Positions 6,314 to 21,114 of a stretch of 21,114 bases of DNA are shown in pieces. Numbering within the stretch: the stretch's first letter is position 1; every line of letters begins with the position of its first letter. The DNA comes from Promethearchaeota archaeon (lineage in GTDB: Archaea; Asgardarchaeota; Hermodarchaeia; Hermodarchaeales; Hermodarchaeaceae): the NCBI GenBank assembly GCA_048938295.1, contig JBHLMI010000038.1, positions 1 to 21,114 on the forward strand, written 5' to 3'. The notes beneath the pieces were generated by a model that saw nothing but the letters and a program-made list of their open reading frames with translations, ran no database searches and was not told the DNA's origin. Both the position numbers and the translations under genes were made by a program.

Positions 6314-6333
6314 GATGGTCGACGGTTTGTGGG

Positions 6334-6672
6334 TTACTCTTCTTTAGCTTCCTCTTCTTCCTCAATTTCTTCAAGGGGAATCGGGGGTGGAGTCGTAAGC
6401 ATGGTCCAACCAATCCAAGCCACAATGAAGAGTACAAGCACAATCGCCAGCCATATCGGAATTGCCACAGCCCAATAGGGCTCCGCTAGCACTGGAATCC
6501 AGTAGAAGAATGGAAACCACGGATGACCAGAAAGATCAGGAAATGCACCCGTGAAGGAAGGGTAGACTGTGTAGAACATGAAAGGATAGATCAAAGCCCA
6601 ATAGGTGTAATAGAGTAGAACTAGAATCGCGAAGAGGAGAATGAGGAAACCATAGACTTTATCTCGTGCCAT
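6334..6672 (-). CDS. Two-TM membrane protein resembling eukaryotic DPM2 (Dol-P-Man synthase regulatory subunit)
   Basis: TM1 D.V.G...YYT.W...PF and TM2 AVAIP......L.LF....I...ML.T match my recalled human DPM2 sequence without gaps. The C-terminal WIGWTMLTTPPPIPLEEIEEE resembles a poorly annotated archaeal small membrane-protein family. The CDS is solid; the product call is provisional. Confidence 0.7.
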   Translation of the reverse strand: MARDKVYGFLILLFAILVLLYYTYWALIYPFMFYTVYPSFTGAFPDLSGHPWFPFFYWIPVLAEPYWAVAIPIWLAIVLVLFIVAWIGWTMLTTPPPIPLEEIEEEEEAKEE

Positions 6673-6829
6673 AATTGGTTACCCCTAATGGTAGGGAATA
6701 TGCGACTGCCTTGATAAGGCTTTATTCTTAAGTCTTACCCACAGGCAGCCCAATTCTTAGAACAGATGAGTCAACTACCAAATAAATACTTATGGCTCGC
6801 AAGCTAAAACACATCTCGGAAGAAACGCA

Positions 6830-7891
6830 ATGAAAGCCCTCATCCTTGCCGGCGGTATCGGTACACGACTCCGTCCCCTAACGTGTACGCGCCCTAAACA
6901 ACTCCTCCCCCTTGCTGAATCCACCCTCATCGGTTACAATATCGGGCAGCTCACCAAATCAGGAATCAGGGAGGTTATTCTTGCGACCGGTTATAATATT
7001 GAGCAATTTCGAAGTGAGCTTGAGAATGGCACTAACCCCGATGTAACCTTGCACTTTTCTGTTGAATCCCACCCCCTGGGAACCGCGGGAGCGATAAAAC
7101 ACGCTGAACCCTACTTACAAGACGTAGAGCAGTTTCTCGTTCTAAACGGTGATATCGTCTCGGATATAGCCTACAATCATATGCTCCAATATCACAAGGA
7201 CCACCAAGCCATGGCCACAATTGCCCTGTATCGTGTCGAAGATCCTAGTCGGTACGGAGTAGTTGATGTTACCGCCAATGGACAAATACACCAATTTGTT
7301 GAGAAACCTCCTCCAGGTCAAGCCCCCAGTAATTTAATCAACGCGGGCTGCTATGTACTCGATTCTGCTGTTCTTAATCAAATTCCACCCAATCGAGAAT
7401 TGTCAATCGAATACGAAGTATTCCCCCAACTTTGTCAATCCACTCAAGTCTACGGTTGGGAACACCACGGAATCTGGATCGACACAGGTACCCCCGCCTC
7501 CTTCCTTGAAGCCCATCAGGTCCTCCGTGGAAAAATCGGAAAAACGCCACAGATCGGAAAAGACACGAAAATCGCCTCTTCAGCCCAGATTGCCTCCGAT
7601 GTCACGATTGGTAACCACGTGACTATAGGTAATAATACAAAGATCTCCAATGCCGTCATATTCGATAATGCCATCATTGACGCAGAGGTTATTATCCACC
7701 AGTCAATCGTTGGCCAAGGTGCCATCATCGGCAAAGCGTTAACTCTAGACGACTACACTGTCATTGGTGACGGTGCCATTCTTGACACCGGAGCCGTTAT
7801 CCCACCGGGCTCAATCGTATGTCCACAATGTCGTGTCAAAAAGGACGCATATCCTCCCCATTGTTTTGTCAAGAACCTCAAATCTCTCTGA
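6830..7891 (+). CDS. NDP-sugar pyrophosphorylase, most like mannose-1-phosphate guanylyltransferase (GMPPB/Mpg1 type)
   Basis: MKALILAGGIGTRLRPLT..RPK, PLGTAG, VLNGDI, PSRYGVV, FVEKP, NLINAGCY, SIEYEVFP, WIDTGTP, and C-terminal hexapeptide repeats. Sugar specificity is inferred. Confidence 0.88.
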   Translation: MKALILAGGIGTRLRPLTCTRPKQLLPLAESTLIGYNIGQLTKSGIREVILATGYNIEQFRSELENGTNPDVTLHFSVESHPLGTAGAIKHAEPYLQDVEQFLVLNGDIVSDIAYNHMLQYHKDHQAMATIALYRVEDPSRYGVVDVTANGQIHQFVEKPPPGQAPSNLINAGCYVLDSAVLNQIPPNRELSIEYEVFPQLCQSTQVYGWEHHGIWIDTGTPASFLEAHQVLRGKIGKTPQIGKDTKIASSAQIASDVTIGNHVTIGNNTKISNAVIFDNAIIDAEVIIHQSIVGQGAIIGKALTLDDYTVIGDGAILDTGAVIPPGSIVCPQCRVKKDAYPPHCFVKNLKSL

Positions 7892-7900
7892 AGACTCGGT

Positions 7901-8563
7901 TTACTCACTGGGACTGGCAGCGATGAGAACTCGTGCCCGCCGAGTGGTGGCAATCAAAATACTACCAAGGGTAATCACGGCAAGTACAACGGTCGTGGGA
8001 ATAAGGGTAATCCCAAACGGAGTGAAATTCAAGCCAAAAGCCACTAACACAGCCAATGCAATGCTTAAGCCACACGAAAGAGCAAGCCTTTCCCAGCGAT
8101 CAATGAAACGCTCAAAGGGGAAAAGAGCACGGATAAATGCAAATCCAGGCACAAAAACCAGCAATAATCCTCCAAATATCCAACGCAGTACCACGGCAGG
8201 GAACAGCTCCACAGGGATGAAAAAGACCGTTACCACCCCAAGCACCAATAATAGTAAAGTGATCCACAGATCCAATGCCAATGTACTGCGTAAATATTCC
8301 CAAATACTTGTTACAGGCGTCATCACCGTTTCTTCAGAAGCGCCAGGCAAGTTCAAGAGCACCTGCCCTTCTTGGGCCAGATCTTTGATCATTCGAGTCG
8401 TTACCCCTTCTGGCACCCCTTTGGTCTTTAGATCTGCCACTACCTCTTGGACGGTGGAAAAGCGGCGACTGCGAAGCGCTTCGAGAACTAGTTCTCTGAC
8501 GGTCTCAGGAACATAGGTGTCTTTTTCACGAAGCAGCATGAGGAGTCCATCCGCGGTCATCAT
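7901..8563 (-). CDS. DUF1616-like membrane domain (about 4 TM) with N-terminal winged-helix-like domain
   Basis: LRWIFG..LLVFVPGFAFIRALFP, ERLALSCGLSIAL and LNFTPFGI are typical of the DUF1616 TM part. The soluble N-terminal ~75 aa has a helix-helix-helix-strand pattern. The start may be ATG 8539. Confidence 0.75.
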   Translation of the reverse strand: MMTADGLLMLLREKDTYVPETVRELVLEALRSRRFSTVQEVVADLKTKGVPEGVTTRMIKDLAQEGQVLLNLPGASEETVMTPVTSIWEYLRSTLALDLWITLLLLVLGVVTVFFIPVELFPAVVLRWIFGGLLLVFVPGFAFIRALFPFERFIDRWERLALSCGLSIALAVLVAFGLNFTPFGITLIPTTVVLAVITLGSILIATTRRARVLIAASPSE

Positions 8564-8611
8564 TAACCAAAGATTCTTTTAACCTTTGAGTCCCCTATTG
8601 TTTCGAACCAT

Positions 8612-9151
8612 ATGCAGCGCCGCTATTCCGTCTTGATCCTGGTTATCCCCCTTCTGGCAATAAGCCTAGGGCTATTCTCACAAGGTGTAAGATTATTTCC
8701 CGTCACTGCGATCCATTCCCAGCCCAGCCAGGCACAACAGGCCATTGACGCAGCACAAAACGCCATCAATGCCGCCTATATCAACCTAGTCTTCGCCGAT
8801 AACGCAGGTTCACTGATTACCGATCTTATCGGAACACTCAATGGCGCCATCACCGAGTTGAACCAAGCCCGTAACGCCTATGCAGCAGCAGACTATGCCA
8901 CCGCCATCACATTGGCTGAAACTGCAGAATCCACCGCACACGCCGTGAGCAATGAAGCCCATCTGCGCGGTGTCACAATCACCGCGCAAATTCAAGCCCA
9001 AATCGTGTTCATCTTCGCTGTTATTCTAATTTCAATTCTGGCAAGCTACTTTGCCATTAGCCGGTGGCACCAATACCGCAAACAGAAACAGCGCGAATTC
9101 TTACGAATGGAAATCCGACTTCCCGATGACGAGGAGGAGGAACAATCATGA
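8612..9151 (+). CDS. Hypothetical membrane-anchored helical-bundle protein
   Basis: N-terminal signal/TM, Ala-rich amphipathic helices (QAIDAAQNAINAAY...LNQARNAYAAADYATAI), a C-terminal TM followed by a basic stretch, and an acidic end. ATGA overlap with the next gene. Confidence 0.8.
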   Translation: MQRRYSVLILVIPLLAISLGLFSQGVRLFPVTAIHSQPSQAQQAIDAAQNAINAAYINLVFADNAGSLITDLIGTLNGAITELNQARNAYAAADYATAITLAETAESTAHAVSNEAHLRGVTITAQIQAQIVFIFAVILISILASYFAISRWHQYRKQKQREFLRMEIRLPDDEEEEQS

Positions 9152-9651
9152 GACGATTCACCCAAACGATTCTCACCATTATCATGTTTGGCATCGTCTT
9201 AGCCACCGGCACACTCTTGGTGTCGGTATGGTTTCTGCCCCCTACCGAACCCACCCCCTCCATTGCCATGCTCAACGAAGATATGGAGGCATCAAATTAT
9301 CCAACAAACGTCTCGGTTAACACCAACATCACCCTCAACATCGAAGTCTCCAACTACATGGGCGTCGTCCAGTATCTGTATGTACGCATGAAATTAGCTA
9401 ATGAGACCACGATGGCAACTGCTGCAAATCCCTCGTCTGCTCCAACAATCCAGCAATTTGAACGACTTGTTCCCAATGGAGGGACTTGGCGCTTCCCAGT
9501 GACCCTTAATATGACTACTCCGGGCATCAATTACCGTTTGACCTTTGAATTATGGCGTTATGACCCAACAGCAGACGAGATTGTCTGGATCCGTGGCCCA
9601 CTAGGGCGGGGCCTTTGGATTCATCTGCCCATGAATGTCACAGGACCCTGA
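9148..9651 (+). CDS. DUF1616-like extracellular beta-sandwich protein with one N-terminal TM
   Basis: TM segment then EPTPSIAMLN...ASNYPTNV, VSNYMG and YRLTFELWRYD, resembling the soluble C-terminal half of DUF1616 proteins. Several NxS/T sequons (NVS, NIT, NET, NMT, NVT). Confidence 0.7.
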   Translation: MRRFTQTILTIIMFGIVLATGTLLVSVWFLPPTEPTPSIAMLNEDMEASNYPTNVSVNTNITLNIEVSNYMGVVQYLYVRMKLANETTMATAANPSSAPTIQQFERLVPNGGTWRFPVTLNMTTPGINYRLTFELWRYDPTADEIVWIRGPLGRGLWIHLPMNVTGP

Positions 9652-9671
9652 AGCGATCTGGGTGAAAAGAC

Positions 9672-10841
9672 ATGACCCGTCGGTTACACATCACACAGGT
9701 GGTCCATGACTTTCACCCTGTCATCGGCGGCTTGGAAACCTACGCATACAATTTGGCAAGGGGCCTCATTGACGCTGGGCACACCGTCACCGTCTACACT
9801 GCCAGAGTGCCCCATACTCCGAGTTATGAGCACTACCATGGTATCAATATTCACCGACTTCGTGCCATCGCCCGTCCTTTTAATTTCCCCCTTCTCCCTG
9901 GGCTCTTCCGCGCCTTAACACGACAGCGATGTGATATCCTCCACGCCCACATCAACTCCCCCATGACAGTCGACCTCACCGCCTTCGCAAGTCAACTAAC
10001 GAAGGCCCCCCTAGTGGTCACCTATCATGCTGACGCCCTGATCAGCGATATTGCTGCCAACACACCCTTTTTCCGTACCTGGCTGGACCAAATCTATCGA
10101 CGCGCCTGTCGACGCGTTGCGAACATCGCACAACAGCTCATCGTCACCTCACCTCTCTATCGCAACACTTCCCTTTTCTTACAGGATTACCTTCACAAGA
10201 CCACCGTAATTCCCGCAACGGTCAATCCATTCTTTCTCAAATCCAGACTCAGCCCACTTCAAGCCAAAGACAGCTTCGGCTTCAAACCAAACACAACGCT
10301 CCTGCTCTTTGTGGGACGCTTAGTGCCCTACAAAGATTTACACACCCTCCTCCGTGCCTTCCAGCACGTTCACCAACAGGAATCCCAGGTCCACCTAGCG
10401 CTAGCTGGGTCAGGTCCACTGAAGCCTTCACTCCAAGACCTCAGCACGCAATTGGGCATCTCACATGCGGTACACTTTCTCGGAATTTTACCCCGTCGAC
10501 GACTTCGCGACATCTACACTGCTTGTGATATCTTCGTGTTACCGTCGCGTTCACGATCAGAAGCCTTCGGAGTCGTCCAGTTGGAAGCCATGGCACAGGA
10601 AAAACCAGTAGTCGCTACCACTATAGGGGGCATACCCTATGTGGTCCGTCATGACAAAACCGGACTCTTGGTTCCCCCCTCTGATGTCACCATGCTTGCA
10701 CAAGCACTGCTTCGATTGGTGCAAAATCCCCACTTACGTGAAGAACTAGGCAAAGCGGGTCGGAGGCGGTTGCTGGAGCATTTTACCCGTGAAAGCACTA
10801 CTCGAACACTCGAAGCCGTATACTACAAGATTCTCCAATAA
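9672..10841 (+). CDS. Glycosyltransferase family 4 (GT-B fold)
   Basis: FHPVIGGLE, FVGRLVPYKD and EAFGVVQLEAMA.EKPVVAT.IGGIP (Ex7E motif). SD GGTGA upstream. Confidence 0.93.
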   Translation: MTRRLHITQVVHDFHPVIGGLETYAYNLARGLIDAGHTVTVYTARVPHTPSYEHYHGINIHRLRAIARPFNFPLLPGLFRALTRQRCDILHAHINSPMTVDLTAFASQLTKAPLVVTYHADALISDIAANTPFFRTWLDQIYRRACRRVANIAQQLIVTSPLYRNTSLFLQDYLHKTTVIPATVNPFFLKSRLSPLQAKDSFGFKPNTTLLLFVGRLVPYKDLHTLLRAFQHVHQQESQVHLALAGSGPLKPSLQDLSTQLGISHAVHFLGILPRRRLRDIYTACDIFVLPSRSRSEAFGVVQLEAMAQEKPVVATTIGGIPYVVRHDKTGLLVPPSDVTMLAQALLRLVQNPHLREELGKAGRRRLLEHFTRESTTRTLEAVYYKILQ

Positions 10842-10860
10842 CAGAATCCACAAGTGTAAG

Positions 10861-12495
10861 TCATGGCGAAGGTTCATCATGTCGGCTCATTCGTTCGACG
10901 AGCCACGAGACTGGTCGTGACACTGGATGAAGTTCTTCACTCATCCGAAGCAAAGCGAATGTATCACCCGCATCAAGTACTCGACCCCGAATCAGCATCC
11001 ACAGATACACAATCGCCAATGGAACAGCAGTTAGAATAAGGCCTATCTGGAATAACCACGAAACAATGCCTGCGAGCCCCCAGACCGTGATGGCTACCGA
11101 TCCGCTCCATAAAATCCCAAAGGCGCCGAGTGCCACAATCGCTAATACACCCAAGGTTTTGGGAAGGAACCCAAACTCCACACGCGATTCTGTTCGCCGC
11201 TGATACAATATGATAAACACGACAAAGAAGGGAATGACCACCAACCAAATCAGCGCTACCACCACTTCCCGCCAAACGGGAGTAAGAAACCACAACACCA
11301 TCAAAACGACTACAGTCCACACTGCATTGGTGGCTAAAACGGATCGAATCCGTCCCAATCCAATCAGAGTGTCTGAAAACATCACAACTAGCGGATAGAT
11401 GAGAAAACCCCCAGTCATAAGGACAAAAAATGGCAGCGCAACCAAACCTTCAGTGGCAAACATCACAATCAAAACCGGCGCAGCAAAAAAGACTGAAATC
11501 ACCGTAACGAAGGCGGCTAACAGCACACCAAGTTTCCATGCTCGGTTCATATACCCTTTAATCGTGGTCCACGCACGTTGTGCTGCATCACCAGCAGCCC
11601 GTGGCATCAACACACGGAACGGGGCAGATAACCCCTGCTGAATCCAAACCGCCACACTTAACGCTAATCCTAGCCCTGCCAACACCACATCTGAAGTGCG
11701 ATGTTGATTGGCAATAAGAATCGGCACATACACCAACACGGCTCCCAAGAGGGCCAGTGCCAGCCCTTGGGATGCTGTCGACGTCATCGATCGAATAGAA
11801 GTCACCCTTGCTTCCCCTTTTGAATCACTACGATAGCTTCGAAGGAGTCGTTGTAGCACTCCAGCTTCATAGGCGATTGTTAATCCAGATGCCGCAAAAT
11901 TCGCTATGATTACGGTCAGCAAAGTCATGGTGCCAGTCAGAAACAGGACCACTAGACCTGCAACATATGCTCCATGAAACAGCCCCATGGCAAAGGTGCA
12001 ATATCGCATTTCCTGCATGCCCCGAAAGGCTCCTTGCATCACGGTGCTAGCCGCTGTTAGGATTATAGTCCAGAGAGCGAGTTGGAGAAACGGAACCGCA
12101 TAACTAGGCACAAAAAAGTCCTGAGGTAAAATCGCCACCAACACATACATTACCGCGACGATACTCAAACTAGTGACAATGGTTGTCAGCACGGCGACAC
12201 CGATATTGCGTGTCAACATCGAAGACTGGGTACTGACCACCTCAGGAACATGTCGCCGTAAAGCCACATCCATCCCCATGGCCCCCAAGGGGATGAGCAT
12301 ATTCACCCACGTGAACACCAAAATAAAAAGATAGAATTCATAGACTGGTGTTTGGGGCAACCCTCGCACAATCAAAATCGAAGATAGAATACCAAACAGG
12401 ATCACCAACACAATCGTGATGGCTTCTGCTACGATATTTTGGGTAAACCGATTAGACGGACTACTTCTCTCTAAATCTACGGTTGCTCTAGACAC
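10861..12495 (-). CDS. Oligosaccharide flippase / polysaccharide exporter (MOP superfamily, Wzx/Rft1-like)
   Basis: About 13-14 hydrophobic segments, G(M)DVAL.RHVPE loop, QGAFRGMQ, and LIGLGR in the second repeat. Lies between two GT4 genes. Confidence 0.8.
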   Translation of the reverse strand: MSRATVDLERSSPSNRFTQNIVAEAITIVLVILFGILSSILIVRGLPQTPVYEFYLFILVFTWVNMLIPLGAMGMDVALRRHVPEVVSTQSSMLTRNIGVAVLTTIVTSLSIVAVMYVLVAILPQDFFVPSYAVPFLQLALWTIILTAASTVMQGAFRGMQEMRYCTFAMGLFHGAYVAGLVVLFLTGTMTLLTVIIANFAASGLTIAYEAGVLQRLLRSYRSDSKGEARVTSIRSMTSTASQGLALALLGAVLVYVPILIANQHRTSDVVLAGLGLALSVAVWIQQGLSAPFRVLMPRAAGDAAQRAWTTIKGYMNRAWKLGVLLAAFVTVISVFFAAPVLIVMFATEGLVALPFFVLMTGGFLIYPLVVMFSDTLIGLGRIRSVLATNAVWTVVVLMVLWFLTPVWREVVVALIWLVVIPFFVVFIILYQRRTESRVEFGFLPKTLGVLAIVALGAFGILWSGSVAITVWGLAGIVSWLFQIGLILTAVPLAIVYLWMLIRGRVLDAGDTFALLRMSEELHPVSRPVSWLVERMSRHDEPSP

Positions 12496-13640
12496 GAGAG
12501 ATACACTCCTTCAGTCAACTCAGTTGTACGGTTCCAATTGTGGTGTTCATGAACATACGTTTGACCACGGTGCCCCATCATCTGCAGCTCGGTGCGTCGA
12601 GGTAACCAACTTTCCAGGAGTTCAGCCATCCCCTCGAGTTCGGGGACCTCCATGGTAATCCCCCATTCGCTCTGCAAAAATTCAGCCACGCCACCGACCG
12701 CTGAAGCCATCACCGGTGTTCCCGTGGCTAAGGCTTCCAATAGTGAGGTGGGCAGGGTTTCGGTAAGAGAAGGAATCATAAACAAATCCAACGACGCCAT
12801 AAACGCGGGCATCTCTTCATGATCAAGACGCCCAAGAAAGTGTAGCTTCCTTGCACTAGTGCCTTTGGTTAATTCCATCCACCGATGATACCCCGCCGCT
12901 TCTCCAGCCACCAGTAAATGCAACTGATCCACGGACTCTAACTGGATTACCGCCTCCAGTAACTTATCAAAGCCCTTATCTGCAGTCAAAGCTCCTGCAT
13001 ACCCAATCACAAAAGCATCCGTTGACAAATTCTGCTGCTTACGATACTTCGGCTCCACACCCGAATGAAAACTAGAAACATCAACAGCATGGGGCACATA
13101 TACAATCCGCTCTCGTGGCACTCCCTCCTGCACGAGCACCTCCTCTGAACGATGAGTCAAACAGATTATCCGAGTAAAGGATTGATGGAGCGCCCGGGAC
13201 TCTAAGAATCGAAACAGCTGGGCACGACCCATTCCCCGCTCCAACCGTGACCATTGAGCCTCCACATGGGATAACACTGACGCGACAACCGGCACACCCA
13301 ACTCCTCTCCCGCACGTAGGGCGGCTTCTGATGCGATTGGTTGCACCGTATGTATGATATCCGGTTTCCACCTGCGTGCAAATTCTCGAACCAGTGGTAC
13401 ATATCTTCGCCTAAACAGGAACCGCCGAAACAACGTCGAAACCGACCGACTTCGGAGGTCCGAAGCCACCGGTAATAATCCCACCGTATTCGAGGACGCA
13501 AATTCATCATCCTCCGGGGTCCCACTCACAATGACGACCTCATGTCCCCGTTGCAGCAACCCCTCACTCAGCTGAGCCCAATAACGGGGCCCACCACCAG
13601 CCCGTTTTGCGTGCGACTCAACCACCATCAGGATCTTCAC
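12477..13640 (-). CDS. Glycosyltransferase family 4 (GT-B fold)
   Basis: (M)KILMVVE, PDIIHT, IGYAGAL..DKG and ETLPTSLLEALATGTPVMASAVGG. GTG 13640 is preferred (GGTGG upstream); the ORF extends to 13667. Confidence 0.92.
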   Translation of the reverse strand: MKILMVVESHAKRAGGGPRYWAQLSEGLLQRGHEVVIVSGTPEDDEFASSNTVGLLPVASDLRSRSVSTLFRRFLFRRRYVPLVREFARRWKPDIIHTVQPIASEAALRAGEELGVPVVASVLSHVEAQWSRLERGMGRAQLFRFLESRALHQSFTRIICLTHRSEEVLVQEGVPRERIVYVPHAVDVSSFHSGVEPKYRKQQNLSTDAFVIGYAGALTADKGFDKLLEAVIQLESVDQLHLLVAGEAAGYHRWMELTKGTSARKLHFLGRLDHEEMPAFMASLDLFMIPSLTETLPTSLLEALATGTPVMASAVGGVAEFLQSEWGITMEVPELEGMAELLESWLPRRTELQMMGHRGQTYVHEHHNWNRTTELTEGVYLSCLEQP

Positions 13641-13689
13641 AGATGCAACCACCACACACATCAACAAAATAGGCTAATCGACGGAATCG

Positions 13690-14963: not shown

Positions 14964-16865
14964 ATGTCCCGTATTCGAACCCGATTTGGGAGGCGCTGGT
15001 TAAAACAAATCCGAATCCCATCGTTCAAAGTCCTGCTTTTATTATCAACAATTGTTTGCGGATTCGTCTTGACTGGTCTATATTTTAGTTATCCAAGTAA
15101 TCTCCCCGTTCAATTACAACGTTTTCAATCACATACTGAGTTAATTTGGTATGTGCGAAACCATCATCCACCCCAAGGCTATGGATGGGGGTTATGGTTG
15201 GAAGATGGCATCACATTGTCCTCAGGTGATTCTACTCGAGGAGTGGCAGGAATATCCGGGTATTCAACTACAAACGTCCAAGTCGAAGGCGTTGATGAGC
15301 CCGACACGGTCAAAACCGATGGAACCTATATTTTCACAATTACAGACGAAAAGGTTGCAGTTATTGAAGCATATCCTGTGGCCACAGCACACATCAGCAA
15401 TTGGATTTACCCAGAAGGAACACCACTTGCTTTGTTCTTATGGAACGGCTCAAAACTTATCGTGATTAGTCAAGTCACTGACCAAGAAAACACGTGGAAC
15501 TCCTACGAGATTGCACTTCAAGTCTTTGATGTCTCTCAACCGACTTCCATTACCTTACTTCAACGCATCAGCCTGGGGAATTATTATGTCAGTGCTCGGC
15601 TCATTGATGATTATCTATATCTAATCGTCCAAGACTGGATCACCGAAGAGAATGGAATTGTTGAGCTCCCATCAATAACCATAGGAAGCACCACACACCC
15701 CATCCCAGCAGAAACCATCTATTACGATCCTCAATCCTATGACTATGGGTTCTGCTACAATCAAATCCTCGCCCTTGATATCAGCAATCCCGACACTCCT
15801 CCAGACATTGAAACATTCCTTGGTGGAACAGGTACCTGCACAATCTATGCATCTCTTAGCAACCTGTACCTGGCCATATCACATTTTGACTTCCGTGGTG
15901 ACACCTTTTCCGGACATTCTACAGCCATCCATCGTTTTGTAATCTTTGAGGGGCAGATAGCATACGAAGCCAGTGGAGAAGTACCTGGCTTTCTCATTAA
16001 CCAGTTTGCCCTCGATGAAAATGCAGACTATCTGCGCGTCGCTACAACCAGTCAGATAGTAAACTATACAGCTAATCCGAACTTGTTTGTAAGCTCTTGG
16101 ACAGAAGTCAGTAACGTCTATGTCCTAAATCAACAACTCGATACCGTTGGACGACTCGAAGGTTTAGCCCTAGGCGAAAGCATCTACTCAGTTCGATTCC
16201 TCGAAAGCGTATGTTATCTCGTGACCTTCTGGAAAACCGACCCCCTCTTTGTCATTGACATGACTAATCCCACCGCACCACACCTTCAAGGAGAACTGAT
16301 CATTCCAGGATACTCAGATTACCTGCACCCCCTAGGAGATAACCAGCTAGTAGGCATCGGAAAAGACGTCAACGCTTCAGATGGAGAAAACTGGTGGTGG
16401 TATCAGGGGCTCAAACTCAGCCTCTTCAACGCCACAGACCCCTACACCCCAACAGAAAGCGCCAAACTAATTCTTGGCGTACGAGGCACCGAATCACCTG
16501 TCTTACACGACCATCACGCCATCTTGTACCATCCCCACCAGCAGCTCCTCGTCATTCCAGTGCTACTTGCCGAATATACAGACAACAGCACCCATAACCC
16601 ATATGATCACGGTGACTACGTCTGGCAGGGCGTCTACATCTTCTACCTCGACCCCGCCACCGCAACCATTACTATTCAGCACCGAATTACCCATCTCGCC
16701 AACCCCGACGTCCTCCAAGACAATTACTACGAATGGCGATCACACTTCATCACCCGCTCCCTCTACATCAACAACATCCTCTACACCCTCTCACAAGCTA
16801 CACTCCGGTTCCACAACCTCACCGACTTCACACCCCTGGGCGAAATCCAGCTCAATGCAACATAG
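14964..16865 (+). CDS. Membrane-anchored/secreted beta-propeller domain protein (Beta_propel family)
   Basis: Basic N-region plus TM, then YSTTNVQVEGVDEPD.VKTDG, PGFLINQFALDE, GESIYSVRF, TDPLFVID, IPGYSDYLHP and GLKLSLF. ATG 14964 is preferred over TTG 14898. Confidence 0.88.
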   Translation: MSRIRTRFGRRWLKQIRIPSFKVLLLLSTIVCGFVLTGLYFSYPSNLPVQLQRFQSHTELIWYVRNHHPPQGYGWGLWLEDGITLSSGDSTRGVAGISGYSTTNVQVEGVDEPDTVKTDGTYIFTITDEKVAVIEAYPVATAHISNWIYPEGTPLALFLWNGSKLIVISQVTDQENTWNSYEIALQVFDVSQPTSITLLQRISLGNYYVSARLIDDYLYLIVQDWITEENGIVELPSITIGSTTHPIPAETIYYDPQSYDYGFCYNQILALDISNPDTPPDIETFLGGTGTCTIYASLSNLYLAISHFDFRGDTFSGHSTAIHRFVIFEGQIAYEASGEVPGFLINQFALDENADYLRVATTSQIVNYTANPNLFVSSWTEVSNVYVLNQQLDTVGRLEGLALGESIYSVRFLESVCYLVTFWKTDPLFVIDMTNPTAPHLQGELIIPGYSDYLHPLGDNQLVGIGKDVNASDGENWWWYQGLKLSLFNATDPYTPTESAKLILGVRGTESPVLHDHHAILYHPHQQLLVIPVLLAEYTDNSTHNPYDHGDYVWQGVYIFYLDPATATITIQHRITHLANPDVLQDNYYEWRSHFITRSLYINNILYTLSQATLRFHNLTDFTPLGEIQLNAT

Positions 16866-16877
16866 ATGTCGCATCCA

Positions 16878-18734
16878 TTATCGAACCAACTGATACCGCC
16901 CCTTTGCGACGCGCACAAAAACTCCTTGTTTCACCAGCTTTGCCATCCGATCCGCCAGATACGCCGGATACCGATTCGCCACCAACTCCTGCAACACCCC
17001 ATCCCCCTTCAACTCACCTAAGGCTATCTCCCCCTTCCCAGCACTCGCCAATTCAACAATCCGATCACAAATCACCGACGCACTTTGCAACTTCTTAGCA
17101 AACCCTGGATCCAACAACCGTTCCGACCGCCCCTGATCGTGCCGGTGAAGCCGCAACCATTCCTCAAATCCAATACCCCCCTTACTAAACTCCTGATAGA
17201 CCTGTAACTGTTTGACCAAGAAATCACACTGCTCATACCGCGGCGCTAGCTTTCGGTCAAATCTCACCACAACTCCTTCCGACACCACACCGACTCCCCC
17301 ACCCACCGCCGCCGCCAACGCAAGAACCCACCTAGCATCCATCCACTGCCGACGCCCCTGCAAATACCCCCGCACCGTCGTCTCCGGCATCCCCGCCGCC
17401 CGCGCCGCCGCTGCCGCGGTCCCAAATTGATCCAACAACCGCCTCCGCAGCCTACTCCACCATTCGTCTTCCATCACCACCCGATCCCCATCATCCCAGC
17501 CATGCTTCCAAATCCGCGCCAAAAACGCCTCCCCCGCCTCCGTCGTCTGATAAAACGTCGTAAACTTCCGCTTCTCCACCCGCCGAATCCACCCTAATTT
17601 CCGCAACCGCTCCACCACCCGAAACACAAAATCTTCACGAAGCATAAACCGGTGTGCCACATCCGCCACCGAACCAACACCCCGCAGACCGATTAGGACT
17701 AAGAAATCTAAATCAAACCCATCCAACCCCCACTCCCCCCACTTCGCATCACACTCAAGCTGGAACACCAACCGCTCCGCCCGCTCCGGATGCGTAAACC
17801 CAATATGCTCCGCATACCACCCAAACAGCGGCCGATACACATCCAAAATAAACCACGACCGACACGGCTTCACCCCACCCACCGACTTCATGAAAACAGC
17901 AACTTCCTTTGAAGGCAACGTCGCCTCCATCAACTCCACAATCAACCCCCGCATCTGCTCCAAAATCGTCGCACCCCCCGACGTAAACCGAATACAATGC
18001 GCTCCCACATGCCCATCATCATCCCCAAAAGTCCGTACGATTTCACACTTTAGCTCTAAAGGAAGTTGAAAAAATGAACTGGGAAGAGACCCATTTAATT
18101 CATCAAACTTTGCATCTGGATACCAATGATGGAGAAGATAACCGAGCCATTTTGTGAAAGCAACGTATGAACGGGATTTTCCTCGTCTGTCACTATATTT
18201 CCTAGTACACCACGAAATATCTCCAAATACTTCTCTCAAAGTGCTATGGAACTGATTAAGTAAAACTGCATTTCCGTTTGTGTAGTGTGGAGTCTTAGTT
18301 GTTCCATATTCCTCTGTTAGGGTACCGTCTCCTATTAGATGAACCACCAATCGAACAAGATGGTTATCTTCTATAATTGGTATTCGTGGATTTCGTAGCA
18401 GTCCTGACCTTCCGTACCCTTTAATTGCGCGAACGTTTCTTTCAACATCTGAAAGAATATCTGAATTCTTATGAAACTCCTTGTAAGCGCCAATAAGCTT
18501 CAGTAAAACGCTAAGTTCAATGAAAACGGGATCAGCTAAATCTTCGCGATAGTTCACAGCGTATCGGGCCAAAAGGTCAATTTTTGTGTCAAGCTTCTCA
18601 GCGAGAGTTTTCAAAGAGATTTGATCAAGTATTTTTGAAAAGAAGTTTTTGCCAAAATCTGGGTCCAGTTGAACATAGATGTCCTGGGTGTGAAAATCAG
18701 TAAGGTGGAAGTGACGTAGGTTTTGCCTTCCCAT
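16878..18734 (-). CDS. Free-standing two-motif LAGLIDADG-like protein with multiple HTH/winged-helix modules
   Basis: Motif 1 LVVHLIGDG (D136), motif 2 IVRTFGDDDG (D240), and intein-endonuclease-like blocks TSGG..ILEQM and IGFTHPERAERL. HTH-like segments at aa ~20-80, 345-405, 418-478 and 556-616. No splicing residues. Confidence 0.75.
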   Translation of the reverse strand: MGRQNLRHFHLTDFHTQDIYVQLDPDFGKNFFSKILDQISLKTLAEKLDTKIDLLARYAVNYREDLADPVFIELSVLLKLIGAYKEFHKNSDILSDVERNVRAIKGYGRSGLLRNPRIPIIEDNHLVRLVVHLIGDGTLTEEYGTTKTPHYTNGNAVLLNQFHSTLREVFGDISWCTRKYSDRRGKSRSYVAFTKWLGYLLHHWYPDAKFDELNGSLPSSFFQLPLELKCEIVRTFGDDDGHVGAHCIRFTSGGATILEQMRGLIVELMEATLPSKEVAVFMKSVGGVKPCRSWFILDVYRPLFGWYAEHIGFTHPERAERLVFQLECDAKWGEWGLDGFDLDFLVLIGLRGVGSVADVAHRFMLREDFVFRVVERLRKLGWIRRVEKRKFTTFYQTTEAGEAFLARIWKHGWDDGDRVVMEDEWWSRLRRRLLDQFGTAAAAARAAGMPETTVRGYLQGRRQWMDARWVLALAAAVGGGVGVVSEGVVVRFDRKLAPRYEQCDFLVKQLQVYQEFSKGGIGFEEWLRLHRHDQGRSERLLDPGFAKKLQSASVICDRIVELASAGKGEIALGELKGDGVLQELVANRYPAYLADRMAKLVKQGVFVRVAKGRYQLVR

Positions 18735-18763
18735 AGCACATCAATAGGTGCATAAAAAGGAGG

Positions 18764-18771
18764 TACTTAAA
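18764..18771 (-). promoter_or_regulatory. Putative TATA box of the LAGLIDADG-like gene
   Basis: TTTAAGTA on the minus strand, 30 nt upstream of the ATG at 18734. Confidence 0.45.
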
Positions 18772-18788
18772 CCCCACAATTCTTTAAA

Positions 18789-18821
18789 CATCTATCTATA
18801 TAGATGAGGAAAATCTATATA
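18789..18821. repeat. Palindrome plus short direct repeat in the rps19/LAGLIDADG spacer
   Basis: Perfect 12-bp palindrome ATCTATATAGAT (18794-18805), CATCTA-n6-TAGATG (18789-18806), and ATCTATATA repeated at 18794 and 18813. Confidence 0.6.
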
Positions 18822-19226
18822 TTACTTTAGAGGTACGTACTGACTTCCCCTTGTAGCACCAATGCCGGGGTTGCCGTGGCGGACGGCTTTGTTGGTGGGG
18901 GCGTATTCGCCGAGGTAGTGGCCGATGTGTTCGACTTGGATGCTGAGGGGGAGGAATTCTTTGCCGTTGTGGATGCCGAGGGTGAGGCCGACCATTTCGG
19001 GGAGGATGATCATGTCGCGGTTGTGGGTGCGGATCATGGGGGGGTTGCCTTTGCCCATGTGTTGGCGGGTTTTGCGGAGGCGTTCGAGGAGTTTCTTTTG
19101 GCGGGGTGGGAGGCCGCGTTTGAGGCTGCGGCGTTGCCGGGAGGGGAGCAGGTTGATGAACTGGTCCATGGGCATGCGTTGCAGCTCGTCGAGTTCGTAT
19201 CCGCGGTAGGTGAATTTTTTGACCAT
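18822..19226 (-). CDS. rps19: 30S ribosomal protein uS19 (archaeal type)
   Basis: [51 protein letters not shown] and [27 protein letters not shown], and CTTAAAAG TATA-like at 19285-19278. Confidence 0.98.
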
Positions 19227-19375
19227 GATCGGTGACCTCGTGGAGGGTTGAGGGGTGGTGGTGGGTGCGATTGCTGCCTTTTAAGCGTTGCTGCTTACCG
19301 TGTCCCTTTTTTGGGGGAGGCAAGCATAAAGCATAAAGGGTGCAGGAGGGAAGGGGCACAGGTCGGGGGGATCCA

Positions 19376-20335
19376 ATGACGACAGACACACGGCGGACGG
19401 TGCTAGTAACGGGCGCGGCAGGCTTCGTGGGCAGCCATTTGGTGGATGCCCTGCTCCGTCAGCGGTGTCGTGTGCGGGGCTTTGATGATCTCTCCACGGG
19501 CACCCTGGCTAACTTAACCTATGCCTTAGACCATGCCGCGTTTTCCTTTGTTGAGGGGGATATCCGTGACCTGAAAGCCGTAGGGGAGATCTGTGATACC
19601 TGTGATGTCGTGGTGCATTTGGCCGCCGTCACGAAGGTCGACGAATCCCTCCGTGAACCGGAAAAATACATGGAGATCAACGTCACAGGCACCCAGAACG
19701 TCCTGCAAGGCGCTGTACAGGCGAATGTGAGTCGAGTTGTCTTTGCCTCCAGTGCCGCGGTGTATGGGACACCGGAAACTGTGCCCACCCCCGAAGCGGC
19801 ATCAACCCACCCTCTCTCACCATATGGCGCCAGTAAATTGCAGGCAGAACAGCTCTGCCAACAAGCCGCTCAAGATCATGGCATCGAAGTCCCCCAATTA
19901 CGGATATTCAACGTCTTTGGTTCTCGCCAGCCCTCGGATAACGAAGCGGGGGTGATTAGCATCTTCATCGATCGTGCCCAGCAAGGATTGCCACTGATAA
20001 TTTTCGGTGACGGGTATCAAACCCGCGACTTCATTTACATCAGAGACGTTACTGAAGCCATACTGCAGGCCGCTACGCTGGAGACTGTCCCCTCCGTGCC
20101 AATCAATATAGGGACCGGAATTCCGATCTCGGTGCGTGAACTCGCCGAAGTCATACAAGAGCTCATCCCCTCCTGTTCCACCGAACTTCTCTTTGAACCC
20201 CCCAGGCCCGGAGACATCTATCATAGTGTAGCGCAAATTACCCGCATGCAGCAACTCCTCCAATTTACACCTACCTATTCCTTATTTGATGGATTACGCG
20301 ATTATTGTATGCCCGAATCTGGGTCAACAGAATAG
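19376..20335 (+). CDS. NAD-dependent nucleotide-sugar epimerase/dehydratase (extended SDR)
   Basis: VLVTGAAGFVGS (GxxGxxG), HLAA, FASSAAVYG, YGASK (YxxxK), FNVFG and RDFIYI. ATG 19376 is preferred over GTG 19340. Confidence 0.94.
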   Translation: MTTDTRRTVLVTGAAGFVGSHLVDALLRQRCRVRGFDDLSTGTLANLTYALDHAAFSFVEGDIRDLKAVGEICDTCDVVVHLAAVTKVDESLREPEKYMEINVTGTQNVLQGAVQANVSRVVFASSAAVYGTPETVPTPEAASTHPLSPYGASKLQAEQLCQQAAQDHGIEVPQLRIFNVFGSRQPSDNEAGVISIFIDRAQQGLPLIIFGDGYQTRDFIYIRDVTEAILQAATLETVPSVPINIGTGIPISVRELAEVIQELIPSCSTELLFEPPRPGDIYHSVAQITRMQQLLQFTPTYSLFDGLRDYCMPESGSTE

Positions 20336-20398
20336 AAGAATTAAAAAACAGCATTACAATCGTCACAGACAGGATGAAGGTTGTCAGGAGGTTATCCT

Positions 20399-21114
20399 GT
20401 GACGCTCATGGATATGAAACCAGCTGAGATTGAAAAAGCGCTTACATCCGGGAAACTCAATATCGCGGTCGTCGGTGCCGGACGCATCGGACTCCCCACT
20501 GCCGTCTTGTTCGCAAAGGCGGGGGCAAAGGTCACAGCCTGTGACATCGACCCCAAAGTCGTCACCTGCATCACCAACGGGGAAAACTACATCGATGAAC
20601 CCGGCCTTGACGAGTTATTCGAAGCGGTCGTAGAAAGTGGAAACCTCACCTCCTCCTTAGATACCGCACAAATCACCAGCTCCTCGGATGCCATCATCAT
20701 CTCGGTACCCACCCCCGTGACCCAAGACAAAGTCCCCGCTTATGATCACATCCTGAGTGCCGCCCAGGCCGTCGGAAAAGGCCTGCGGCCAGGTTCCCTG
20801 GTCGTCGTTGAAAGCACCATTGGGCCCGGCACCCTAGAAACCCTCCTTATCCCCGTTATTGAGAAAGCCTCCGGGCTCACCGTCGGGAAAGATTTCCTCG
20901 CTGCCAGTTGCCCTGAACGCGCCGATCCCGGCTCCATCATCACCCGTTTCCGGTCCATCCCCCGCATCATCGGTGGGTACACCGAACAAGCCTCTGAGGT
21001 CGCCGCGGCGATTTATCGTCCCCTCGCCGAAGACATTCTCATTGTCCCCAACCCCAAGACCGCCAACGCCGTCAAACTCACCGAAAACATCTTCCGCGAC
21101 GTCAACATCGCCCT
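20399..21114 (+). CDS. Nucleotide-sugar 6-dehydrogenase (UDP-ManNAc/UDP-GlcNAc dehydrogenase, WecC/WbpA-like), 3'-truncated
   Basis: Not in the ORF track because it has no stop in the window. Translates to NIAVVGAGRIGLPTA, ISVPTP, VVESTIGPGT, SCPERADPG, RIIGG and KLTENIFRDVNIA. GTG 20399 lies 6 nt after GGAGGT; in-frame ATGs at 20408 and 20414. Confidence 0.93.
   Translation, partial: MTLMDMKPAEIEKALTSGKLNIAVVGAGRIGLPTAVLFAKAGAKVTACDIDPKVVTCITNGENYIDEPGLDELFEAVVESGNLTSSLDTAQITSSSDAIIISVPTPVTQDKVPAYDHILSAAQAVGKGLRPGSLVVVESTIGPGTLETLLIPVIEKASGLTVGKDFLAASCPERADPGSIITRFRSIPRIIGGYTEQASEVAAAIYRPLAEDILIVPNPKTANAVKLTENIFRDVNIA

Follow-up and report, generated by a model that had tools for sequence, protein, structure and literature searches.

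A membrane hairpin of the DPM2/PIG-P group in Asgard archaea and Bathyarchaeia, a candidate accessory subunit for lipid-linked-sugar glycosyltransferases

What does a small protein resembling subunits of eukaryotic glycolipid enzymes do in an archaeon? The question is raised by a stretch of 21,114 nucleotides from a Promethearchaeota archaeon (contig JBHLMI010000038.1, positions 1 to 21,114; hereafter called the window), in which a gene for a two-helix membrane protein of 112 amino acids (aa) lies head-to-head with a gene for a sugar-1-phosphate nucleotidylyltransferase. The host genome is that of an Asgard archaeon, and the sources label close homologues as Hermodarchaeia. A preliminary description of this DNA read the gene pair as a possible multi-subunit dolichol-phosphate-mannose (Dol-P-Man) synthase module of the eukaryotic kind. 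We instead favour, at a probability of roughly 0.55, the reading that the hairpin is an archaeal counterpart of DPM2 and PIG-P from before their duplication, and that it serves as the membrane accessory subunit of a glycosyltransferase that builds lipid-linked sugars. The likeliest partner would be a family 2 glycosyltransferase (GT2) free of transmembrane segments. The three elements of the locus are as follows, each with the evidence by which it was assigned.

6334..6672, minus strand: DPM2/PIG-P-like membrane hairpin gene, 112 aa (open reading frame (ORF) list, Pfam, hydropathy, structure model, alignment, metatranscriptome contigs)
6673..6829, no strand: divergent intergenic spacer, 157 bp (sequence)
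6830..7891, plus strand: sugar-1-phosphate nucleotidylyltransferase, 353 aa, NTP_transferase domain and left-handed beta-helix, GMPPB/ManB-like (Pfam, NCBIfam)

The hairpin protein and its kinship to DPM2 and PIG-P

The arrangement reported in the preliminary description, a 112-aa ORF with two transmembrane segments facing a 353-aa ORF across 157 bp, was reproduced in the ORF list, the hydropathy profile, and the structure model. The protein consists of an N-terminal MARDKxYG segment, a first transmembrane helix (TM1), an aromatic loop of 30 residues, a second helix (TM2) ending in WIGWTMLTTPPPIPLEE, and a tail in which 9 of the last 19 residues are acidic. The hydrophobic segments on the Kyte-Doolittle scale are residues 1-33 and 61-96, and the model, built on 30 homologues with a mean predicted local distance difference test (pLDDT) value of 82, has two long helices at residues 3-36 and 65-93. 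Fold searches with this model gave nothing meaningful (best E values of 9.3 against AlphaFold/Swiss-Prot and 7.8 against the PDB), which is expected because the query is a two-helix hairpin. When PDB chains were searched by sequence and by profile, chance matches alone (E > 1) were returned, and no solved DPM2 or PIG-P chain or the transmembrane domain of entry 5mlz was matched.

DPM2 is a regulator of the eukaryotic type-II Dol-P-Man synthase and a component of the glycosylphosphatidylinositol-N-acetylglucosamine (GPI-GlcNAc) transferase, and it has the same two-helix architecture. The Pfam profile of DPM2 (PF07297) matches the archaeal hairpin at 32.7 bits (E = 9e-8), above its gathering cut-off of 27.3. 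Both helices are included in the match, with residues 4-32 aligned to profile positions 2-30 and residues 66-93 to positions 44-71; these correspond to the stretches that had been aligned to DPM2 previously (residues 4-31 and 67-94), for which the preliminary description gave 9/28 and 12/28 identities to human DPM2. The longer inter-helix loop noted at the same time is also borne out, because about 33 residues separate the two matches, compared with 13 profile positions, a difference of about 20 residues. The N-terminal D-x-x-x-G and Y-T motifs are conserved in the archaeal family, which differs from DPM2 in this longer loop and in an additional invariant TTPPPxP(L/I)E motif followed by the acidic tail. 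When the whole 2.52-Mb genome was scanned with PF07297 in six frames, the runner-up candidate scored only 11.5 bits, and none of the 14 control genomes reached the cut-off (0/14). Because the hairpin is the sole match in its genome and the controls are empty, the worry about generic transmembrane similarity is answered.

PIG-P (Gpi19), an essential small subunit of the GPI-GlcNAc transferase, is a hairpin of the same type. Its profile (PF08510) scores 21.5 bits against the archaeal protein (E = 2e-4), below the cut-off of 39.3, but the alignment forms a single stretch (residues 5-108) that continues through the long loop and on past TM2. Among 30 diverse members of the archaeal family, the DPM2 profile matched 21 (best E value, 2e-14), and the PIG-P profile matched 23 at E <= 0.01 (best E value, 5e-11). 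The highest DPM2 score in the family was that of Asgardarchaeum (54.2 bits), and the highest PIG-P score among members scored singly was 33.4 bits, also under the cut-off. Judged from these profile comparisons, the kinship of the hairpin to the DPM2/PIG-P group is real, and the protein is equally PIG-P-like and DPM2-like. The earlier designation as a prokaryotic DPM2 homologue is therefore correct as far as profile membership is concerned, but it leaves out an equal likeness to PIG-P; we take the hairpin to be a pre-duplication counterpart of the two proteins rather than a DPM2 orthologue.

This kinship is already on record, although the entry is recent. Kay et al. (Nature 2025, PMC12872463) described a duplication of DPM2 and PIGP before the last eukaryotic common ancestor, with an archaeal origin, and the lineage of descent of PF07297 is given as 'Asgard' in their supplementary table. 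Precomputed Pfam labels on proteins of the archaeal family also read DPM2/PIG-P already. The eukaryotic-signature link that had been put forward as a candidate had thus been published before. We found no paper in the literature on the function or the partner of the archaeal hairpin. Because the kinship itself is known, the value of this analysis lies in three added points, namely the wide occurrence of the family in Bathyarchaeia, an invariant proline-acidic motif of its own, and recurrent sugar-nucleotide and glycosyltransferase neighbours in a setting where the GT2 enzymes of the Dol-P type have no membrane anchor. The small subunits DPM2 and PIG-P belong to two essential glycolipid enzymes of the endoplasmic reticulum and are poorly understood, and their mutations cause human glycosylation disorders. 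A single-copy, pre-duplication counterpart in archaea would provide a simpler system for the role of such hairpins (anchoring, activation, or lipid presentation), and the family bears on how the glycosylation machinery of the endoplasmic reticulum was assembled during eukaryogenesis.

Distribution, signature, and gene neighbourhood of the archaeal family

With a family profile, 131 of 151 Asgard genomes proved to carry the gene, mostly in single copy; the figures are 69 of 72 for good genomes and 49 of 52 for genera. The carriers include the Hermod-, Thor-, Hel-, Jord-, Frey-, Atabey-, Odin-, and Asgardarchaeum lineages, and the cultured Promethearchaeum syntrophicum MK-D1 also encodes the hairpin. 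A second scan, of species-representative genomes, gave at least 485 loci, and 76 of the best 80 are labelled Bathyarchaeota or Bathyarchaeia. The family is not an Asgard-only trait because it is widespread in Bathyarchaeia. When 1.84 billion representative proteins were searched with the profile, 450 matches were obtained at E <= 1e-3. The top 150 matches share a signature that starts with (K/R)D(K/Q)xxG at the N terminus and continues with a tyrosine in TM1, WIG(W/Y)TMxTTPPPxP(L/I)E where TM2 ends, and an acidic tail, and the hairpin of the window carries every one of these features. A search of the ESM Atlas yielded archaeal clusters only, one of which, comprising Thorarchaeota proteins, has the automatic name 'Dolichol phosphate-mannose biosynthesis regulatory protein'.

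The invariant columns in an alignment of 30 sequences are D4, G8, Y22, P72, W86, G88, T90, T93, T94, P95, P99, and E101. In the preliminary description, Tyr23 of human DPM2, described there as functionally critical, was placed on Tyr21 of the hairpin by a gapless alignment to the human sequence. Tyr21 varies in the archaeal family (Y/W/F/I/C/V), and it is the adjacent Tyr22 that is invariant (30/30 sequences). Some Bathyarchaeia genomes have two hairpin copies (loci L157 and L169; L130 and L195). One family member of 289 aa (P0120) extends for about 190 residues past the acidic tail, which may reflect a genuine fusion or an error in gene calling. A few others (P0346, P0179; L089) are filed in the bacterial bins Acidoferrales and Deferrimicrobium and are most likely mis-binned archaeal contigs.

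The gene order of an RsmB-like gene, HypC, the hairpin, the nucleotidyltransferase, and DUF1616 is kept within the host genus. The sister genus keeps RsmB, HypC, and the hairpin and has a WecB-like UDP-GlcNAc 2-epimerase in the divergent position. The pairing of the hairpin with the nucleotidyltransferase holds only within the genus, and the latter is not a fixed partner. What recurs across lineages is the type of neighbour. A family 4 glycosyltransferase (GT4) is the divergent immediate neighbour in two lineages of Helarchaeota. A polysaccharide deacetylase adjoins the hairpin gene in Jord/Freyarchaeia. In Asgardarchaeum and genus 22 of family f4, the adjacent gene encodes an NAD-dependent epimerase/dehydratase. 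Of the 79 Bathyarchaeia loci, 8 have an NTP_transferase gene directly downstream, and in Promethearchaeum a mannose-6-phosphate-isomerase-type cupin is encoded two genes downstream (L078:6870-7580, minus strand).

Two further neighbours are recorded here. A gene for an OST3/OST6-like membrane protein of 159 aa (L078:2944-3423, plus strand; 32 bits, cut-off 27) is found 2.5 kb upstream of the hairpin gene in Promethearchaeum. In one uncultured archaeon, a single lineage, the convergent neighbour is a profilin (L098:6401-6787, minus strand; 25.6 bits, cut-off 25), which is curious because the invariant tail of the hairpin is proline-rich.

Candidate partners and competing readings

Only two GT2 genes were found in the genome, and they encode proteins of 229 aa (GT2a; genome contig 47, 35497-36186) and 232 aa (GT2b; contig 32). 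Hydrophobic segments are absent from GT2a, and GT2b contains a single, moderately hydrophobic internal stretch. The presence of such GT2 catalytic enzymes, free of transmembrane segments and DPM1-like in fold, in the same genome as the hairpin is a further likeness to the DPM2 system. Both match polyprenyl-phosphate glycosyltransferases, including PpgS, AglJ, AglK, DPM1, the catalytic domain of PfDPMS, and a Dol-P hexose transferase. The best solved relative of GT2a is the catalytic domain of Pyrococcus furiosus Dol-P-Man synthase (DPMS; PDB 5mlz), a single-chain type-III enzyme; the match has an E value of 8e-18 and covers residues 23-233, the four transmembrane helices not being included. 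Among reviewed proteins, the GT2a model (pLDDT 84) is nearest to AglK of M. voltae, a Dol-P-GlcNAc synthase, with 32% identity, and with eukaryotic DPM1 it shares 25-27% identity at template modelling scores (TM-scores) of 0.80-0.82. Orthologues of GT2a across the Asgard lineages have 219-250 aa. GT2b is flanked by an AglF-like nucleotidyltransferase of 249 aa and a membrane protein whose gene extends beyond the locus. Also beside it, on contig 32 of the genome (L008:2104-2670, minus strand), a protein of 188 aa is encoded in which small-GTPase motifs (GEGGVGKT and WDFGG) were read by eye.

Relatives with the GT2 fold occur both alone and fused to membrane domains (AglD, Agl6, Mtb Lnt-Ppm1). 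According to its authors, the transmembrane hairpins of Pyrococcus DPMS resemble human DPM2 (PMC5526996). In that enzyme the hairpins are fused to the catalytic domain, whereas here the hairpin and the GT2 are encoded by separate genes on different contigs, and the archaeal hairpin-family profile gave no match to the 5mlz sequence. Mycobacterial Ppm synthases (M. smegmatis Ppm and the M. tuberculosis Lnt-Ppm1 fusion) have the same GT2 fold in transmembrane-free or membrane-fused form. Their membrane partner raises the activity of the synthase, and we propose the same working model for the hairpin, although the mycobacterial partner is an Lnt-type polytopic protein that is unrelated to DPM2 and PIG-P.

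On the reading that we favour, both termini of the hairpin would face the cytoplasm. As a non-catalytic accessory subunit, the protein would hold or activate a peripheral glycosyltransferase, by analogy with DPM2 and PIG-P in the endoplasmic reticulum, and this enzyme would build a lipid-linked sugar at the membrane. One of the two transmembrane-free GT2 enzymes of the dolichol-phosphate type would be the likeliest partner, and the conserved proline-acidic tail may be the element on which it docks. The head-to-head nucleotidyltransferase would belong to the same glycan island without being a fixed partner. A two-part synthase is plausible because a soluble Dol-P-type GT2 must reach a membrane lipid, and the hairpin is a conserved protein whose eukaryotic descendants serve such enzymes. 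A wider and more tentative proposal is that Asgard archaea and Bathyarchaeia make Dol-P-sugars with a soluble GT2 that the hairpin holds at the membrane through its TTPPPxP(L/I)E-acidic tail, and that this arrangement is the direct forerunner both of eukaryotic DPM synthase and of the accessory subunits of GPI-GlcNAc transferase, DPM3 and others having been added later. We regard this extension as possible but doubtful.

The recurrent glycan-type neighbours speak for the favoured reading. Of the roughly 2,600 ORFs of the host genome, only 21 (near 1%) belong to the families concerned, and their adjacency in at least seven lineages is therefore far beyond chance, even though the families were picked post hoc and the lineages are not all independent. 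Several observations weigh against the favoured reading. The post hoc choice of families means that the enrichment is overstated. No neighbour family is common to more than 3 of the 12 Asgard lineages. S-adenosylhomocysteine (AdoHcy) hydrolase is the neighbour in 59 of 79 Bathyarchaeia loci, an NAC gene adjoins the hairpin in family f4, the ribosomal S19-L22-S3 operon lies downstream in the Thor, Hel, and Asgardarchaeia lineages, and ETF, MFS, and tRNA synthetase genes are neighbours elsewhere. The DPM2/PIG-P signal is also uneven. Scores of 17-23 bits, below the cut-off, were obtained for members from Thor, Loki, Hel, Jord, and Bathyarchaeia, and these are no better than weak matches to the unrelated two-transmembrane family Phage_holin_3_6; because of this unevenness, the link to DPM2 and PIG-P rests on the strong members together with the clear homology that joins the archaeal proteins to one another. 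In family f6, two good genomes encode the hairpin and no GT2a orthologue at E <= 1e-10, and Haloferax, a control genome with no PF07297 match, has a transmembrane-free Dol-P hexose transferase (HVO_1613). Finally, the glycosyltransferases named here are candidate partners only. The co-occurrence of the hairpin and GT2a over 41 relatives does not discriminate, since each of the two is nearly universal. Complex prediction of GT2a with the hairpin gave 0.00 in both runs, with the tool's verdict 'no answer', and counts neither way.

Details of two of these neighbourhoods may be added. The AdoHcy hydrolase gene in Bathyarchaeia is directly upstream of the hairpin on the same strand, at a distance of 72 bp in a representative locus. 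In three genera of family f4, the NAC gene (with UBA) is 6-10 bp downstream on the same strand (L207:3618-3986, minus; L208; L209:3610-3993, minus; L211), and the TTPPP motif has decayed in this family, for example to ITPAPEE or KTRAPE.

The main rival to a GT2 partner is a GT4 partner. The hairpin would then be a functional ancestor of PIG-P, an accessory subunit of a GT4 that adds GlcNAc or another sugar to a membrane lipid in a forerunner of the GPI-GlcNAc transferase. Consistent with this, the PIG-P profile covers the whole hairpin and matches two more family members than the DPM2 profile does, a GT4 is the divergent neighbour in the two Helarchaeota lineages, and two of the three GT4 genes found in the genome by phmmer sit in the window, less than 7 kb from the hairpin gene. 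The genome also has three PIG-L-family deacetylases, two of them near the third GT4, and archaeal homologues of PIG-A were known in 2008, when the accessory subunits of the GPI-GlcNAc transferase had not been found in archaea (PMC2446393). However, every singly scored member is under the PIG-P cut-off, the genome (91.6% complete) yielded no match to GPI2/PIG-C, and its best PIGA domain reached 15.3 bits against a cut-off of 27. Thiol-cofactor pathways also combine a GT4 with a PIG-L-type deacetylase, and adjacency to GT4 is confined to one class. We consider a GT4 partner unlikely. A role outside glycan synthesis, for example in association with the ribosome, protein targeting, or the translocon, appears quite improbable, the likeness to DPM2 and PIG-P then reflecting shared descent or hairpin architecture only. 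The NAC, ribosomal, and AdoHcy hydrolase neighbours would suit such a role, as would weak matches to TMEM208/SND2 (3/30 members) and Holin-X (8/30) and the resemblance of the near-invariant TTPPPxP(L/I)E of the top 150 profile matches to a docking peptide. However, core genes commonly adjoin housekeeping operons, so that such neighbours say little, and the TMEM208/SND2 and Holin-X matches are all below their cut-offs. Against this role there are also the glycan-gene adjacency over a low genomic background and the fact that both eukaryotic descendants act in glycolipid glycosyltransferase complexes.

The original proposal of a eukaryote-type DPM1/DPM2/DPM3 synthase of Dol-P-mannose, with DPM2 co-regulated with GDP-mannose synthesis through a shared divergent promoter, is in our view very unlikely. 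It is in keeping with the DPM2 score above the cut-off, the DPM1-like fold of the GT2 enzymes, the best NCBIfam match of the nucleotidyltransferase (mannose-1-phosphate guanylyltransferase), and the cupin near the hairpin in Promethearchaeum. However, the best DPM3 (PF08285) candidate in the host genome scored 12.1 bits, below the cut-off, and none was above it in the 151 Asgard genomes. Because DPM3 was not found, the three-subunit eukaryotic synthase is not present. GT2a is closer to a Dol-P-GlcNAc synthase than to DPM1, and the nucleotidyltransferase is far under its equivalog cut-off. The suggested co-regulation with donor synthesis is not supported either, as the head-to-head pairing is lost in the sister genus. 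No GT22 (PF03901) Dol-P-Man-dependent mannosyltransferase was found in the genome by a search whose controls were also blank and which is thus uninformative. The genome encodes one STT3/AglB.

The nucleotidyltransferase and other features of the window

In the 353-aa protein, Pfam NTP_transferase (188.7 bits), Hexapep, and LbH_EIF2B domains were found. The GMPPB_C domain scored 19.4 bits, below its cut-off of 39, and the best NCBIfam match, mannose-1-phosphate guanylyltransferase (NF052502, man1P_GTase_Rv), scored 265.8 bits against a cut-off of 440. The label 'GMPPB-like' used in the preliminary description is thus a fair one, in that the general nucleotidyltransferase and hexapeptide domains are present and the best match fits; the scores specific to GMPPB remain under their cut-offs.

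In the spacer between the two genes, the AT-rich box AAATAAATA (about 6782-6790) could be a TATA element for either gene. Metatranscriptome contigs from three libraries (sediment and wetland) that are 92-99% identical to the window cover positions 6321-6748 only, i.e., the hairpin gene and about 75 nucleotides upstream; the RNA runs contained only 0.05-0.07 of the window. The contigs of two runs stop at 6743 and 6748, weakly suggesting a 5' end at this place. It is also weakly suggested that the hairpin gene is transcribed into a short message in close relatives, although the libraries may contain carried-over DNA. The missing RNA coverage over the nucleotidyltransferase gene is meaningless because this gene is less conserved.

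The glycan island adjoining the hairpin spans 7901..13667, and further sugar-nucleotide genes occupy 19340..21112. Their features are the following.

7901-8563, minus strand, and 9148-9651, plus strand: DUF1616 fragments (Pfam)
9672-10841, plus strand: GT4 (Pfam)
10861-12495, minus strand: polytopic Wzx-like membrane protein, 544 aa (Pfam; many hydrophobic segments)
12477-13667, minus strand: GT4 (Pfam)
19340-20335, plus strand: NAD-dependent epimerase/dehydratase (Pfam Epimerase, 216.9 bits; GDP_Man_Dehyd, 185.3 bits)
20381 to the window end, plus strand: UDP-glucose/GDP-mannose dehydrogenase, N-terminal part (UDPG_MGDP_dh_N, 154.3 bits)

Two ORFs on the minus strand, of 618 aa (16878-18734) and 197 aa (18796-19389), have no Pfam match. 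The G+C content varies between 0.43 and 0.575 across the 5 kb from 15001 to 20000. The DUF1616 profile is divided between the two opposite-strand ORFs, which match its positions 3-120 and 151-291. These ORFs flank a gene for a 179-aa protein (8612-9151, plus strand) that starts in a signal-like manner, is rich in Ala and Gln in its middle part, and has a transmembrane helix at the C terminus.

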